Assembly: GCA_963771385.1 (NCBI GenBank)
Contig: CAVYTE010000016.1
Location: 23,664-87,663 of the forward strand
From: an uncultured Actinomycetes bacterium
GTDB lineage: Bacteria > Actinomycetota > UBA4738 > HRBIN12
Direction of reading: 5' to 3'
Length of the DNA: 64,000 nucleotides
The position numbers and the translations under genes are program-made. Below the pieces are notes generated by a model. The model did not search any database. It was not told where the DNA came from and was given only the letters and a program-made list of their open reading frames with translations. This document shows, in pieces, positions 5,942 through 46,991 of this stretch (its first letter is position 1; the number at the start of each line of letters is the position of its first letter).

Positions 5942-8405
5942 ATGGAGGCCGACGGGCGCGAACTGCGCCTGTCGAACCTCGACAAGGTCTTCTGGCCCGA
6001 GGAGGGCTACACGAAGGGCGACCTGCTCGGCTACTACTTCAACGTCGCCGAGCTGATCCTGCCGCACCTGCGCGAACGCCCGCTCACGATGAAGCGGATG
6101 CCGGACGGCATCACGGGTCCGTACTTCTACGAGAAGACCGCGCCCTCGCACACGCCGGACTGGGTCGCTCGCTGCCACGTCGAGAGCGCCGAGAGGCGAA
6201 GAACGGCGTCATCGACTTCCTGACGGTCGAACGACGTCTGCCGACGCTGCTGTACGTGGCGAACCTCGGCTGCGATCGAGATGCACCCGTTGCACTCGCG
6301 CTGCGGCTCGATCGAGCACCCCGACTACCTGTTCTTCGACCTCGACCCGATGGGCGCGAGCTTCGAGGACGTGCTCGTCGGTCGCGCTCCACGTGCACGG
6401 CGGCGCTGCGACCGCTCGAGCTCGCGAGCTACCCGAAGACCTCCGGCGCGACCGGGGTCCAGATCTACGTCGCGATCGAACCCGGCTGCGTACCTACGAC
6501 GAGGTGCGGGAGCTTCGTCGGCACGATCGGGCGGCTGATCGAAGGCGCCGACCGCGACCGGGTCACGATGGAGTGGCAGATCGGCAAGCGCACGCGGCAA
6601 GGTGTTCATCGACCACAACATGAACCGGCGCGGAGCGAACATCGCCGCCGTCTACTCGCTCCGGCCGGAGCCGGGCGCCACGGTCTCGACGCCGCTCACC
6701 TGGGAGGAGGTCGAGGCCGGCGGTGCGCGCCGCAGGACTTCCGCATCGCCAACGTGTGGGACCGCTTCGCGGAAGCTCGGCGACCTGTTCGACGGCGTGC
6801 TGCACCGAGCCCGCAGGACCTCGCGCCGGCGCTCGAGGCCGTCGGGCATCGCGCGATCGCCAGGGCCGATCCCGCCGATGTCCACGCCCGCGACGCCGGA
6901 CGACGACCTCCGAGCGAACGTGATCGCCGCCGTCGAAGGACCCCCAAGCTCGGCCGAGTACCTGCGCAAGCGCGCACTTCGGACCGAGCGGACCCCCGAG
7001 CCGGCGCCGGGCGCCGCGGCCGGCGCGGGGAACTCGTTCGTCGATCCAGAAGCACGGGCGACCCGGCTGCACTACGACGTCCGGCTCGAGCGGGACGGAG
7101 CGCTGGCCTCGTGGGCGGTCCCGCAAGGGGCTCCCGACGCAGCCCGGGGACAAGCGGCTGGCGGTCCACACCGAGGACCACCCGCTCGAGTACGGCTAGC
7201 TTCGAGGGCTCGATCCCGGAGGGCCACTACGGCGCCGGCGAGGTCCGCATCTTCGACGAGGGCTGGTACGAGCCGCTCGAGTGGACCGAGAAGAAGGTCA
7301 CTTCCGGCTGCACGGCCGCCGGTACCCCGGCCTCGAGTACCACTTCGTGAAGACACGGACCGACTGGCTCGTGTTCCTCGCTTCCCGCCGGCCGGCGCCG
7401 ATGCTCGCCTCGCCGCCCGCGATGCAGCCGATGCTCGCCGAGGGCGGGTCGCAGGCGTTCGACGACCCCGCGTGGTGGTTCGAACCGAAGTTCGACGGGA
7501 TCCGGGCCGTGCACGACGATGGCGACCGACTCGACGCGCCTGGTCACCCGCAACGGCCGCGACGTCCGGGCAAGTACCCGGAGCTGGCGATGGTCCACGA
7601 GCTCGTGAACCAGGTGAACGCGGTGCTCGACGCCGAGATCGTCGCCTTCGACGGCGACGGGACGAACTCGTTCGAGGCGCTCCAGCAGCGGATGAACCTG
7701 GCGAACGAGCGCGAGATCAAGCGGATCGCCGCAGAAGATCCCGGTCGCCCTCGTCGCGTTCGACCTGCTGTGGCTGGACGGGCGCGACCTGACCGGGCAG
7801 CCCTGCAGGAGCGGCGCGAGCTGCTCGAGGAGATCGTCGAGCAGGACCACCGCCTGCAGCGTGGTCACGCACGTCGAGGCGGACGGCACGCGATTCGTCG
7901 AATCGCGCAGCGACCTGGGGCTCGAGGGCGTCGTCGCGAAGCGGCTCGGCTCGAAGTACCAGCCCGGCCGGAGATCGCCGGACTGGCGCAAGATCAAGCT
8001 CACGAACACGCAGGACTGCGTGATCCTCGGGTGGACGCCCGGCCAGGGCGGGCGCGCGGGGACGTTCGGGGCGTTGCTCGTCGGGGCCTACGACGACGGC
8101 GGAACTGCATGTGGATCGGTCAGGTCGGCACGGGGTTCACCGCAGCAGACGCTCGAGCGTCTGATGGAGGCGCTCGAGCCGCTCGTCCGCACACGCCCGC
8201 CGATCGACGACCCCGAGCTCGCGAAGGTGAAGGGCGCGACGTTCGTCGAACCCGTGCTCGTGTGCGAGGTGGAGTACCTCGAGATCACGAAGAGCCGAAG
8301 AAGATGCGCGCGCCGTCGTTCAAGGGCATGCGCGACGACAAGGCGCCCGAGGACTGCATCCTCGAGCGGCCCCGCGCCATGGCCGGCCGCGGGGCGAAGC
8401 GCTAG
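5942..8405 (+). pseudogene. ligD: Three-domain ATP-dependent DNA ligase LigD (Pol - phosphoesterase - ligase), about 20 or more frameshifts
   Basis: Conserved LigD segments can be read only by hopping between all three frames. Pol domain: RLSNLDKVFWPEEGYTKGDL...YPKTSGATGVQIYV...KVFIDHNMNRRGANIAAVYSLRP. PE domain: FV|IQKH|..RLHYDVRLE, SWAVPQG, DKRLAVHTEDHPLEYG, FEGSIPEGHYGAGEV. Ligase domain: WWFEPKFDGIRAV, VLDAEIVAFD, EGVVAKRLGSKYQPGRRSPDWRKIK, WIGQVGTGFT. The start codon is uncertain and could be as early as 5848. Confidence 0.8.
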
Positions 8406-13716: not shown

Positions 13717-14652
13717 ATGGGCCCCCTGCCCCCGGGCTACGCGACCCGGCCCCCGACGTTCGATGACATCGAGGCGATCGCCGAGGTGCTGCTGGCCGAC
13801 GACCTGCAGGACACCGGGCAGTCGATCTACGACGCCGACTTCGTGCGCAACCAGTGGCCGGTTCGGGACTTCGATCCCGCGCGGGACGGACTGCTGGTGC
13901 TCGGACCCGGCGGCGCGGTGGTCGGGTTCGGCAACGTGCTGCCGGAGGGCGAGACCCGCGTGAAGTCCTGGGGGGTCGTCCATCCGAAGCATCGCGGCCT
14001 CGGGATCGGCTCGACGGTGTTCGACTGGATCGAGTCACGCGCGCTCGAACGGCTCGCCGGGGTCGCCGGCGCGACCTTCGAACACTCGATCAACGACGTC
14101 GACGAGGCGGCGCGCGCGATCGTGCTCGCGCGTGGCCTCCGGCCCGTCCGGAGCTTCCGGCACATGCAGATCGACCTCGATGGCCCACGCGACCCCGGCA
14201 CGCCGCCTGCCGGTGTGGAGATCCGGAGCGTCGAGGCACCGGCCGACCTCGAACGGGCCCACGCGATCTTCGTCGAGGCGTTCGAGGACGAATGGGGGTA
14301 TCGGGTTATCCCCTTCGAGGAGTGGCGCGCACTCGAGGTCGACATCCCGGGCTTCGATCCCTCGCTCTGGCTCCTGGCGAACGAGGGCGGGGACGCCGTC
14401 GGGGCCCTGAACGCCTCGGCGGACAAGGATCGAGGGTGGATCGGCGAGATCGGCGTGCGCCGCGCCTGGCGCGGGCGCGGGATCGGTTCGGCGCTCCTGC
14501 GGCGATCGTTCGCCACGTTCGCCCAACGCGGCACCCCCCGGGTCCTGTTGAACGTCGACTTCGAGAACCCGACCGGGGCGATGGCGCTCTACGAGAAGGT
14601 CGGCATGCGCGCCGTGCGCGGGTACGACGTCTTCGAGAAGCCGATCGGCTAG
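13717..14652 (+). CDS. Tandem GNAT N-acetyltransferase (MshD-like architecture)
   Basis: 311 aa with two acetyl-CoA motifs, HPKHRGLGIGSTV and RRAWRGRGIGSAL. The substrate is unknown. Confidence 0.8.
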   Translation: MGPLPPGYATRPPTFDDIEAIAEVLLADDLQDTGQSIYDADFVRNQWPVRDFDPARDGLLVLGPGGAVVGFGNVLPEGETRVKSWGVVHPKHRGLGIGSTVFDWIESRALERLAGVAGATFEHSINDVDEAARAIVLARGLRPVRSFRHMQIDLDGPRDPGTPPAGVEIRSVEAPADLERAHAIFVEAFEDEWGYRVIPFEEWRALEVDIPGFDPSLWLLANEGGDAVGALNASADKDRGWIGEIGVRRAWRGRGIGSALLRRSFATFAQRGTPRVLLNVDFENPTGAMALYEKVGMRAVRGYDVFEKPIG

Positions 14653-16395: not shown

Positions 16396-17058
16396 CTACG
16401 AGGGGAGACGGTCGGCCGCGAGGTCCTCCAGGATCTGCGTCAGCTGCTCCTCGGGCACCGAGCCCAGCACCCTCGCGGCGTCCCCCGTCGAGTCGATGAA
16501 GACCCAGGCCGGCTGGAAGGGCACGCCGAAGCGCGCGAACAGCCGCTCGTCGGCGTCGTTCAGATGCGGGAACGAGTCGAGGCCGAACTCGTCGATGAAG
16601 TCCTGCATCGCCTCCTGCGTGTCACGCCATCCGATGCCGAGGAACCGGATCTGCGTCTCGTCGTCTCGCGCCAACTGCGCGACCAGGGGGGCCTCCCCCC
16701 GTCAGGTGCTTCACCACGGCGCCCAGAACCAGATCGCGATCGGCGTGCCGGCGAGCTCCGCCGCGTCGAACGTGCCACCTCCCACCAACGGCGCCTGGAA
16801 GTCGAGGATCTCCGGGACGGCCGCGGGCTCACTGCCGGGCGAGACCGAAGGCGGAGGTGACCCCGACGTGGGACCGCTCGCCGCGGGCGAACCGATGCCG
16901 CCGGTCGCGTCCGGTGCGACCGACGAAGCGCAGGCGGACCCGAACAGCGCGAGGAACAGGAGGATCGAGTGGGCGGACCGCACACGTCTCACCGCAGCGA
17001 TTCTACGGCGAACCCTCCGGGGTCTCGTGTCTCGGGGATCGCGTTCCCGGAGGACCAC
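16396..17058 (-). CDS. TlpA/ResA-like thiol-disulfide oxidoreductase with two in-frame TGA codons at the CxxC positions (candidate UxxU selenoprotein)
   Basis: ORF fragments 16711..17058 and 16396..16674 are in the same frame, since both low coordinates are 1 mod 3. The only stops between them are TGA at 16711-16713 and TGA at 16702-16704. Read-through gives ...PIAIWFWAPW-U-S-T-U-RGEAPLVAQLARDDETQIRFLGIGW..., which matches the WCxxC(R/K)xExP redoxin motif. The N-terminus carries a signal or lipoprotein-like peptide (ILLFLALFGSAC). The likely start is the GTG at 16983. Confidence 0.7.
16666..16700 (-). promoter_or_regulatory. Two consecutive mRNA hairpins downstream of the UGA codons (candidate SECIS elements)
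   Basis: On the minus strand, GGGGGG-AGG-CCCCCC occupies 16700-16686 and UCGCGC-AGUUG-GCGCGA occupies 16682-16666. The first hairpin starts 10 nt after UGA1. The second starts 19 nt after UGA2. Confidence 0.45.
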
Positions 17059-26288: not shown

Positions 26289-27273
26289 CCGCCCCGACCG
26301 CAACCTCGCGCAGGAGCTGGTCCGGGTGACCGAGGCCGCGGCGCTCGCCGCGGGTCGCTGGGTCGGTCGAGGCGACAAGGCGGCGGCGGACCAGGCGGCC
26401 GTCGACGCGATGCGCCTGATGATCGACACGGTGGCGATGGACGGCGTCGTCGTGATCGGCGAGGGCGAGAAGGACGAGGCCCCGATGCTGTTCAACGGCG
26501 AGTCCGTCGGCACCGGCGACGGCCCCGGGTGCGACGTCGCGGTCGACCCGATCGACGGCACGAGGCTCACCGCGATGGGTCAGCCGAACGCGCTCTCGGT
26601 GATCGCGCTCGCCGAACGCGGGTCGATGTTCTTCCCCGGCGCAGCCGTCTACATGGAGAAGGTGGCGACCGGCCCGGAGGCGGCCGACGCGATCGACGTG
26701 ACGGCGCCGCCGGAGGAGAACGTTCGTCTCGTCGCCAAGGCCAAGGGCGTGCGCCCCGAGGAGATCGGCGTGGTGATCCTGGACCGCGATCGCCATGCGG
26801 AGATGATCCAGCGCGTGCGCGAGGCCGGCGCGCGCGTGTACCTGATCACCGACGGGGACGTCGCCGGCGCGATCTCGGCGGCCACGACCCGCCGGTCGGG
26901 CCTCGACCTGCTGCTCGGGATCGGCGGCACGCCCGAGGGTGTGGTGGCGGCGGCCGCGCTGAAGTGCGTGGGCGGCGCGATGCAGGGACGCCTGTATCCA
27001 CGCAACGACGACGAGCGGCGGCGGTTGCTCGACGCCGGCTTCGACATCGACCGGGTGCTCACGACCGACGACCTCGTCGCCGGCCAGGACGTCTTCTTCG
27101 CGGCGACGGGCGTCACGGACGGATCGCTGCTGCGTGGGGTGAAGTACTGGCCGGACGGCGCCACGACCTCCTCGATCGTGATGCGCTCGCGTTCGGGGAC
27201 CGTCCGGACCGTCGAGGCCGAGCACCGCTTCGAGAAGCTCGAGAAGTACTCGCCGATCGAGTACCGGCGCTAG
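26281..27273 (+). CDS. glpX: Class II fructose-1,6-bisphosphatase
   Basis: About 330 aa: [26 protein letters not shown]...VAVDPIDGT...GIGGTPEGV, typical of GlpX. Confidence 0.9.
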
Positions 27274-46172: not shown

Positions 46173-46991
46173 GTGCTGCCGGTACCCTGGGGCCCGATGG
46201 ACTGGCGTTCCTACGACTCGGTCGCGCAGACCTACGCGAGGGTCCATGCGTCCAGACTGGCCGAACCCGCGCGCGACCTCGTCGCGCTCGCGGGCGTCCA
46301 GCCCGGTGCGAGGGTGCTCGACGTCGGGACCGGCACCGGTGTTGCCGCGGTCGAGGCGGAGGGCGCGGGCGCCGAGGTCGTCGGCGTCGACGAGGCCTAC
46401 GGGATGCTGCTCGCCGCTCGGGGCTCGAACCCGAACGGCGACCTGCGGCTCGCGGCGGCGCAGGCGATCGACCTGCCGTTCCGCGACGGCGCGTTCGACG
46501 CCGTGATCGCCAGCTTCGTCATCGCCCACTTCACGAAGTACACGACGGCGCTGCACGAGATGCTCCGGGTCCTGCGACCGGGCGGCCGGATGGCGCTGAC
46601 GGCGTGGGCCGACACGCCCGACGACCTCCAGCGGACCTGGACCGAGCTCGTCGAGTCCGTCATCCCGCGTGAGGTGCTGAACTCGGCCATGGACGAGCGT
46701 CTCCCGTGGCGCGAACGGTTCCGCCACCGGCAGCCGCTCGAGGAGGCGCTGCTCGAGGCGGGTCTCCGGCAGGTCCGCACCGAGGTCCGCCCCTACCGGT
46801 TCCGGTACAGCCTCGACGAGTACGTGGACGGCCTCGGGACATGGGCGACCGGGCGCCTCGTGCGTTCGATGCTCGGCGGACCCGGCTACGAGGCCTTCGA
46901 GCAGCGCGCCCGGTCGGTGTTCGCCGAGCGGTTCGCGGATCCCGTGAACGACTTCCGCGAGGTCATGTTCGCCACCGGGACGAAACCCTAG
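46173..46991 (+). CDS. Class I SAM-dependent methyltransferase
   Basis: Motif I reads VLDVGTGTGV; further motifs are FDAVIASFV and LRPGGRMAL. An alternative start is the ATG at 46197. Confidence 0.85.
   Translation: MLPVPWGPMDWRSYDSVAQTYARVHASRLAEPARDLVALAGVQPGARVLDVGTGTGVAAVEAEGAGAEVVGVDEAYGMLLAARGSNPNGDLRLAAAQAIDLPFRDGAFDAVIASFVIAHFTKYTTALHEMLRVLRPGGRMALTAWADTPDDLQRTWTELVESVIPREVLNSAMDERLPWRERFRHRQPLEEALLEAGLRQVRTEVRPYRFRYSLDEYVDGLGTWATGRLVRSMLGGPGYEAFEQRARSVFAERFADPVNDFREVMFATGTKP

Follow-up and report, generated by a model that had tools for sequence, protein, structure and literature searches.

The mycobacterial disulfide oxidoreductases DsbE (MPT53, Rv2878c; structure 1LU4) and DsbF (Rv1677; structure 3IOS) are exported, and DsbF is a lipoprotein. 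Both carry cysteine at the two redox-active positions of the CxxC motif, and in M. tuberculosis the family has been studied only in this cysteine form. Here we describe a relative encoded on the minus strand of a 64,000-nucleotide (nt) stretch of DNA from an uncultured Actinomycetes bacterium (hereafter the window, whose positions supply all coordinates below). In this relative, both active-site cysteines are represented by UGA codons. We conclude that the locus is a genuine gene, that its predicted product is a disulfide oxidoreductase exported and anchored to the membrane, and that its two UGAs are most likely read as selenocysteine (Sec, U), giving a U-x-x-U (UxxU) active site. The window protein shares with DsbF and DsbE/MPT53 the WFW(A/T)PW-CxxC-xxEAP block, a QPA(W/Y/F) cis-Pro loop, and a similar domain length; it differs from them in the two Cys positions and is about 40% identical to them. 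The active site of MPT53 is CPFC, and its P-F dipeptide recurs in a second clade of double-UGA relatives (UPFU) described below. Mycobacteria have been reported to possess formate dehydrogenase as their sole selenoprotein. If our reading is correct, selenoprotein use extends to exported DsbE/DsbF proteins of Actinomycetota.

Natural diselenide redox centers are very rare. The preliminary description of this DNA made the same point and gave SelL as the known UxxU example. The rarity stands, but earlier publications do report other UxxU redoxins from bacteria. One such group is the Prx-like thiol:disulfide oxidoreductases, which passages in two reviews (PMC9312934 and PMC13188914, after Kryukov and Gladyshev 2004) define by a PF00578 domain and a UxxC or UxxU motif with one or two Sec residues. 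Published members from sequenced genomes are mostly from Deltaproteobacteria, whereas the family described here is actinobacterial, lipoprotein anchored, and DsbE/DsbF-like. With PF00578 as its best Pfam domain and a UxxU motif, the window protein fits the rule that those reviews give. The placement is by domain and motif; the exemplar of the group is WP_010940744.1, a Geobacter protein.

SelL itself is described in passages of PMC2397514 as a diselenide protein of fish, invertebrates, and marine bacteria, and the Global Ocean Sampling (GOS) survey reported UxxU sequences from aquatic metagenomes in a "Prx-like 2" family. Like the window protein, these have a thioredoxin-like fold, two Sec residues two residues apart, and bacterial members. 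The motif contexts differ: ...HYFATQG-UAGU-T... in SelL/Prx-like 2 against ...FWAPW-USTU-RGEAP in the window. We rejected membership in SelL/Prx-like 2, since BLASTP against a GOS Prx-like 2 UxxU read gave E = 0.07 over a spurious segment and only the UxxU is shared. One read in GOS Dataset S1 (PMC2398784), JCVI_READ_1091141091063, does belong to the window family (E = 3e-18 against the window protein): its lipobox is LLGSAC, and its motif reads …VLWFWAPYUTTC…. The data set lists it under "Prx-like 2", and the UxxU reads in that group (…QGUAGuT…) are unrelated to the window protein. Bacterial thioredoxin-fold UxxU selenoproteins are therefore already catalogued, and the UxxC form of the window family is already in the 2008 GOS data set. 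As far as we have searched the literature, no specific description exists of a DsbE/DsbF-like actinobacterial lipoprotein in UxxU form.

A redoxin gene with UGA at both CxxC positions

The open reading frame (ORF) listing of the window presents the gene as two parts in the same frame, 16711..17058 (115 amino acids [aa], ending ...FWAPW) and 16396..16674 (92 aa). The preliminary description had taken these for a single gene with UGA at both CxxC positions, and the sequence and its translation agree. When 17058..16396 is translated, the only stops between the two parts are TGA codons, UGA-1 at 16713-16711 and UGA-2 at 16704-16702, spaced 9 nt, or three codons, apart. The minus-strand DNA around the motif is TGG TTC TGG GCG CCG TGG TGA AGC ACC TGA CGG GGG GAG GCC CCC CTG GTC. 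Read-through gives …GTPIAIWFWAPW-stop-S-T-stop-RGEAPLVAQLARDDETQIRFLGIGWRD…, with WFWAPW-stop-ST-stop-RGEAPLV as the motif. The start of the coding sequence (CDS) is ambiguous: we used the GTG at 16992-16990, an alternative GTG lies at 16983, and the earliest start that the ORF listing permits is 17058.

Do the two UGAs replace the catalytic cysteines? Eight cysteine-containing homologues (P0001 to P0008) read FWAPWCS[TVIR]C[RN] at the motif, and both TGAs align with their CxxC columns. Both also fall on the CxxC cysteines of M. tuberculosis DsbF, whose active site is WFWAPWCPTCQGEAP, and DsbE/MPT53, whose active site is WFWTPWCPFCNAEAP. From the alignment with the homologues and DsbF, we conclude that both TGAs sit on CxxC columns.

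For the profile searches, Cys was put into the query at both stops. The protein scored above the Pfam cutoffs for AhpC-TSA (PF00578; 39.7 bits, cutoff 26), Redoxin (PF08534; 35.3 bits, cutoff 26.6), Thioredoxin_8 (PF13905; 32.2 bits, cutoff 27), and Thioredoxin (PF00085; 31.9 bits, cutoff 23.5). Against all Protein Data Bank (PDB) sequences, the best match was DsbF (3IOS, E = 2.4e-30), with 131 query residues aligned to chain residues 15-144, followed by DsbE/MPT53 (1LU4, E = 1.1e-26); the next, a ResA, stood at 5.5e-11. Closest similarity, the WFWxPWCxxCxxEAP block, and the QPA cis-Pro loop all place the protein in the actinobacterial DsbE/DsbF (MPT53) subfamily. A scan of genome contigs with the pattern WFWAPWC found homologues only in Actinomycetota, at no more than 50% identity and all in the Cys form, which the pattern demands. 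This restriction to Actinomycetota, a GC content of 71.5%, and the affinity to DsbE/DsbF all point to an actinobacterial source.

The protein had earlier been called a TlpA/ResA-type redoxin. The thioredoxin fold holds, but it is mycobacterial DsbF and DsbE/MPT53, rather than ResA or TlpA proper, that stand nearest among characterized proteins. ResA, TlpA, and CcmG (the Gram-negative DsbE), which are reductases of cytochrome c maturation, share with the window protein the fold, the WCxxC...E...P signature, and weak NCBIfam and PDB matches. NCBIfam scores fell below the cutoffs for ResA (47 bits against 170), DsbE (37 against 123), and TlpA (32 against 230), and the model for ResA-like WAxxUGC selenoproteins, NF041054, scored 32.4 bits against a cutoff of 300. 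With scores so far below the cutoffs and unrelated gene neighbors, we rejected a ResA/TlpA/CcmG role.

We predict that the protein is exported and lipid anchored. Its N-terminus has the pattern of a lipoprotein signal, in which Cys21 of the lipobox is encoded by 16932-16930. Among the matches listed in the search for UGA-containing relatives (see below), 80 of 92 distinct complete N-termini fit a simple pattern of basic region, hydrophobic segment, and lipobox Cys. Most of the 12 that lack the lipobox pattern have ...AACG or ...TTCA visible by eye, and the Cys homologues have LLAGCG or LLGACG. An export or lipoprotein-like N-terminus had been noted before. The window signal and at least 80 of the 92 family N-termini agree with that observation, and export itself is a prediction from them.

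UGA-containing relatives and selection beyond the second UGA

A protein search gave one UGA-form relative, in contig L001 (assembly GCA_975905775.1), by way of a protein (P0009) that ends at …FWAPW. This contig has an RmuC neighbor, as in the window, and its motif DNA, TGG TGA GGG ACC TGC CGA, encodes U-G-T-C. Across the mature domain, the part after the TGAs included, the L001 and window proteins are 70% identical. In the recorded annotation (L001:1145-1819), the UGTC orthologue is broken up: its N-terminal part stands as a protein of 118 aa (P0009) and its C-terminal part as a separate gene of 71 aa, which shows how such selenoprotein genes drop out of protein databases. Standard gene callers split or shorten genes of this kind.

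We scanned metagenome contigs for TGGGCNCCNTGGTGANNNNNNTGHNNNNNNGARGCNCC, that is, WAPW-TGA-x-x-(TGC/TGT/TGA), in which TGA at the first position is a search criterion, and at least 120 contigs matched. Among the matches listed, more than 100 sequences, all but a few, stay open in frame beyond the motif for about 97 codons, as far as the conserved C-terminus; the exceptions run into a contig end or lose the frame (L188 and L191). Of 122 matches listed, the window included, 110 have TGC or TGT at the second position and 12 have TGA. The latter fall into a USTU group (the window, L130, and L188) and a UPFU group of nine contigs with TGA-CCG-TTT-TGA, representing at least three distinct sequences (L096, L109-type, and L172). 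Some family members lie on long contigs: Ga0209828_1000038 (97 kb, with a UPFU sequence), ORXM01000003.1 (553 kb), Ga0209185_1000008 (503 kb), and Ga0209091_10000009 (213 kb).

Perhaps the second TGA, or even both, is a sequencing or assembly artifact? A change of one base from TGC would suffice, and indel errors do occur in the metagenome relatives (L188 and L191). However, the string TGA-AGC-ACC-TGA is common to three independently assembled sequences, those of the window, L130, and L188, whose genes are pairwise only 83 to 89% identical at the nucleotide level; a base-call error is therefore excluded. The orthologues in L130 and L188 differ from the window gene at 13% and 17% of nucleotides, respectively. 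Their loci are RmuC-syntenic with the window, with RmuC proteins 82 to 85% identical, and this shared neighbor, at 71 to 85% amino acid identity over the RmuC comparisons as a whole, supports the orthology of the USTU genes. With TGA-CCG-TTT-TGA present in nine more contigs of a second clade, an artifact is extremely unlikely. The argument of the preliminary description that a double chance mutation or base-call error is improbable is thus upheld.

We built a neighbor-joining tree in which USTU is represented by the window and L130, leaving out the frameshifted L188, and UPFU by L096, L109, and L172. USTU and UPFU form two separate clades nested among UxxC sequences, and the USTU clade is sister to L001 (UGTC). 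UxxU is therefore derived from UxxC, at least twice. As judged from these sequences, each origin took just one change, TGC/TGT to TGA, in a UxxC selenoprotein.

Is the frame beyond UGA-2 still in use? Over the codons 3' of UGA-2, the ratio of nonsynonymous to synonymous substitution rates (dN/dS; Nei-Gojobori method, NG86) was 0.20 for the window against L130 (dS 0.38) and 0.16 for L096 against L109 (dS 1.46). Hence, the stretch past UGA-2 is under purifying selection and must be translated. These values bear on the idea that UGA-1 alone gives Sec and that UGA-2 is a tolerated nonsense codon, leaving a 96-residue product from a gene that is decaying or nearly nonfunctional in the USTU and UPFU lineages. 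UGA-2 is one base from the ancestral TGC/TGT, it is TGA in just 12 of the 122 matches listed, and L188 carries a frameshift, all as such decay would have it. Yet UGA-2 has been kept across a dS of 0.38 in USTU and 1.46 in UPFU, with about 100 codons after it in frame at a dN/dS of 0.16 to 0.20. Stop positions are identical, and UGA-2 arose and persisted twice. A pseudogene would not keep such features, and we regard this idea as improbable.

The stops of the 38 long ORFs in the window that have a coding signature in GC content at codon positions 1, 2, and 3 (GC1/2/3) are TAG in 20, TGA in 17, and TAA in 1, and TGA is the terminal stop of the orthologous genes in L001 and L130. UGA is therefore an ordinary stop that is recoded only here. 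With TGA terminating 17 of these 38 ORFs, we rejected a reassignment of the genetic code. The same counts speak against the broader proposal that one or both UGAs are read without Sec-tRNASec, through near-cognate Trp/Cys read-through or as a reassigned codon, so that the protein carries W or C. That proposal can draw on the UGAC context of UGA-2, a weak termination context in E. coli, and on the unusual frequency of TAG as a stop in the window. However, UGAs placed exactly on the redox cysteines, with a covarying hairpin downstream whose loop contains GGU/GU, are the signature of a selenoprotein. Moreover, a Trp in place of a catalytic Cys would inactivate the protein, which is at odds with the purifying selection on the gene. 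Decoding without Sec-tRNASec is accordingly quite improbable.

Two observations on individual contigs belong here. In L191, a UGIC member (minus strand, motif at a reverse-complement offset of about 3582), the conserved frame is lost after ...QGEAP, consistent with a 1-nt deletion. L145:642-679 (minus strand) holds an unrelated, shorter thioredoxin-like selenoprotein candidate, ...VLVEFWAPW-U-G-H-C-RTEAP..., with 73 codons downstream; it has neither the DsbE/DsbF-like C-terminus nor either type of hairpin described below.

Covarying hairpins downstream of the motif

Just 3' of the motif, the CDS is conserved beyond the needs of the protein, and the family has two structural solutions, types A and B. 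Positions within them are counted with the U of UGA-1 as nt 1. Type B (37 sequences, the window included) has two hairpins, hairpin 1 (hp1) at nt 13-30 with the loop AGGCC and hairpin 2 (hp2) at nt 31-49, which together are 88.7% paired. Changes on both sides of a pair occur in 35 cells against 10.4 expected, and none of 500 shuffles reached the covariation score. Pairing drops to 37 to 55% when the partners are slid, and RNAalifold recovers the core. The hp2 helix is 90.3% paired in the family, with compensatory changes at three pairs (columns 42-50, for example, are GC in 20 sequences, UA in 12, and AU in 3) and with the loops AGGUG, AGGUU, AGUUG, or GGGUC. Type A (62 distinct sequences, UPFU included) has a 6-bp stem with one bulge and an invariant GGUC loop at nt 30-33, 97.3% paired. 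Its pairs are exchanged as well, UA:49/CG:12/GC:1 at one position and GC:50/UA:7/AU:3 at another. Again, none of 500 shuffles reached the covariation score, and pairing with slid partners was 21 to 66%. Covariance analysis of orthologues, which the preliminary description had named as a check, thus finds hairpins resembling a selenocysteine insertion sequence (SECIS) that covary in both types.

The position and loops of these hairpins also fit a bacterial SECIS. The bSECISearch model accepts 16 to 37 nt between the UGA and the apical loop. In the window, the apical loop of hp2 (16676-16672) lies 34 nt past UGA-1 and 25 nt past UGA-2; the type-A loop starts 26 nt past UGA-1 and 17 nt past UGA-2. 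GGUC is the apical loop of the SECIS of E. coli fdhF. That element, like ours, is a stem-loop inside the ORF, 3' of the UGA, and it shares with type A the same 4-nt GGUC loop, a short GC-rich stem, and a bulged base, while the AGUUG loop of the window keeps the G and U. The fdhF element differs in spacing: its loop is about 18 nt from the UGA, whereas in our family the distance from UGA-1 is 26 nt in type A and 34 nt in type B.

Types A and B are mutually exclusive and coincide with the tree's two main clades (L082-L201), one with the single GGUC hairpin and the other with the hairpin pair and a loop at nt 38-42. The encoded residues (P-A-V-A-E, P-S-V-E-E, or P-T-V-V-E) shift together with the stem. 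In L102 and L149, a GGUC-loop hairpin has moved 3' (GGCUGC-GGUC-GCAGCC, loop at about nt 37-40), a third placement.

How many SECIS elements serve the two UGAs? UxxU members and their UxxC sisters share one hairpin, identically placed, and one SECIS for both UGAs is therefore the economical reading. Shchedrina and colleagues reportedly found, in 2007, that a single SECIS serves both UGAs of SelL. By its position and covariation, hp2 is plausibly the single SECIS for both UGAs of the window gene.

An arrangement with two SECIS elements, hp1 for UGA-1 and hp2 for UGA-2, has some points in its favor: both hairpins are conserved and covary in type B, and the hp1 loop, which starts 16 nt past UGA-1, and the hp2 loop, 25 nt from UGA-2, both fall within the 16- to 37-nt range. 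In the 37 type-B sequences, hp1 is 86.5% paired, with changes on both sides at two of five pairs (CG/UA/AU/GC). However, type-B members whose only UGA is UGA-1 have both hairpins just the same, and type A, the UPFU diselenide clade included, makes do with one hairpin and has no hp1. The AGGCC loop of hp1 is set by Glu-Ala codons and does not have the GU of all other loops. These codons are invariant, and hence the conservation of hp1 is partly a matter of coding. Nor can hp1 be the SECIS of UGA-2: its loop starts 7 nt past that codon, which is too close, and with UGA-2 in the ribosomal A site, hp1 would have to be already unwound. We therefore consider two SECIS elements unlikely and hp1 probably an accessory structure.

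If one hairpin does serve both codons, the diselenide site may have evolved at least twice from a selenenylsulfide by reuse of a single preexisting SECIS, at 34/25 nt or at 26/17 nt. We offer this combined history as a tentative possibility.

Proposed selenocysteine decoding and the organization of the locus

Our favored reading runs as follows. The ancestor would already have had Sec in a UxxC motif and, a short way 3' of it in the CDS, a SECIS hairpin. When the codon of the resolving Cys then changed from TGC/TGT to TGA in one step, a second UGA would have appeared 9 nt downstream, still in reach of hp2. SelB-GTP-Sec-tRNASec bound to hp2 would decode UGA-1 and then UGA-2, three codons on. 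Export by the Sec pathway and lipidation would place the U-x-x-U center on the outer face of the membrane. There it would cycle between diselenide and diselenol, and exported proteins would be its substrates, through their thiols and disulfides, as has been proposed for DsbE/DsbF of M. tuberculosis. We consider this reading as a whole quite probable; the elements of it that we infer are the insertion of Sec at both codons, reliance on one SECIS, export, the chemistry of a diselenide, and the direction in which catalysis runs. A live selenoprotein gene, as the preliminary description had suggested, is supported by the Sec/Cys alignment, more than 100 relatives with UGA-1, the recurrence of UGA-2, purifying selection, and the covarying hairpin. 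The persistence of UGA-1 and of that hairpin across a deep and diverse family points to organisms that decode Sec.

Several observations weigh against this reading. The local fold is no more stable than same-composition shuffles (z = +0.47), and a search of the window at Rfam gathering thresholds gave no SECIS, tRNA-Sec, or other match; what speaks for a SECIS is therefore the covariation, the position, and the sequence of the loop. Judged by E. coli, inserting Sec twice in succession should be inefficient. In L188 (1165-1600), a 1-nt deletion lies just past ...LDSFPH, and the conserved C-terminus LNDADERLFARFGVPFQPAWVFID... resumes in another frame; the deletion is either an assembly error or the mark of a recent pseudogene. 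As for the chemistry, a diselenide is thermodynamically hard to reduce, as stated in a passage of PMC2397514.

The Sec machinery belongs among these points as well. In the 64-kb window, tblastn found no match for E. coli SelA, SelB, or SelD, and ARAGORN found no tRNAs, so the statement in the preliminary description that the window has no Sec machinery is correct. No tRNA-Sec was found in the 120 family loci either. The absence of selA, selB, selD, and tRNA-Sec from the window and about 0.5 Mb of family loci is uninformative. Over the window and all loci, the sole tblastn matches were weak, SelB-like GTPase matches in the loci of Cys homologues. Consistent with Sec decoding, Sec machinery in Actinomycetota has been published for all 84 complete Actinomarina genomes, for about 40% of mycobacteria, and in earlier surveys.

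What would a UxxU protein of this kind offer? No new mechanism or class is revealed. If both Sec residues are inserted efficiently, these proteins would be extracytoplasmic diselenide oxidoreductases and a natural system for tandem Sec insertion in bacteria. A compact bacterial example would serve as a natural test of one SECIS recoding two nearby UGAs. The paired UxxC and UxxU orthologues of L001 and the window would allow the effect of the second selenium on the redox potential and kinetics of a Dsb-type protein to be gauged. A possible role, if the reading is true, is that of oxygen-recyclable catalysts of oxidative folding that are independent of a DsbB/VKOR-type partner.

The features of the gene are collected in Table 1.

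Table 1. Features of the redoxin locus, in window coordinates (MFE, minimum free energy)
Feature	Coordinates	Strand	Description
Redoxin CDS	16396..16992	minus	198 codons from GTG 16992-16990; TAG stop 16398-16396
Lipoprotein-type signal peptide (predicted)	16930..16992	minus	MRRVRSAHSILLFLALFGSA-C; read from translation; basic n-region, hydrophobic core, lipobox-like FGSA-C
Pro/Ser/Gly-rich linker	16929-16825	minus	residues 22-56
Thioredoxin-fold catalytic domain	16399..16824	minus	residues 57-198; WFWAPW-U94-S-T-U97-RGEAP and QPAW cis-Pro loop; from DsbF alignment and Pfam envelopes
UGA-1	16711..16713	minus	predicted Sec94; column of the N-terminal (nucleophilic) Cys of CxxC
UGA-2	16702..16704	minus	predicted Sec97; column of the resolving Cys of CxxC
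Hairpin 1 (hp1)	16684..16701	minus	CGGGGGG-AGGC-CCCCCUG; directly 3' of UGA-2; MFE and centroid fold
Hairpin 2 (hp2), candidate SECIS	16666..16682	minus	UCGCGC-AGUUG-GCGCGA; MFE and centroid fold

The window neighbors of the redoxin gene are RmuC, a TldD/PmbA pair, a GNAT acetyltransferase, a cupin, and a CBS protein; ccdA, resB, resC, and other cytochrome c maturation genes are not among them. GC3-based scans of the window gave no other convincing gene with an in-frame TGA. A plus-strand TGA at 6221-6223 does lie between open stretches of 165 and 104 codons with high GC3. This frame is probably not a gene: its GC1 is low, its translation is implausible and rich in Arg and Ser, and it is lost at slightly altered settings.

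The stop codons of the window are unusual in one further respect. The TAG share (20 of 38) is high for an actinobacterium-like genome of 71.5% GC; in Actinobacteria, UGA is reported to be the stop used most often. In each of three convergent gene pairs, the two genes overlap by a palindromic CTAG that gives TAG to both strands, at 14649-14652, 27270-27273, and 46988-46991; the first of these pairs consists, by Pfam, of the GNAT and cupin genes.

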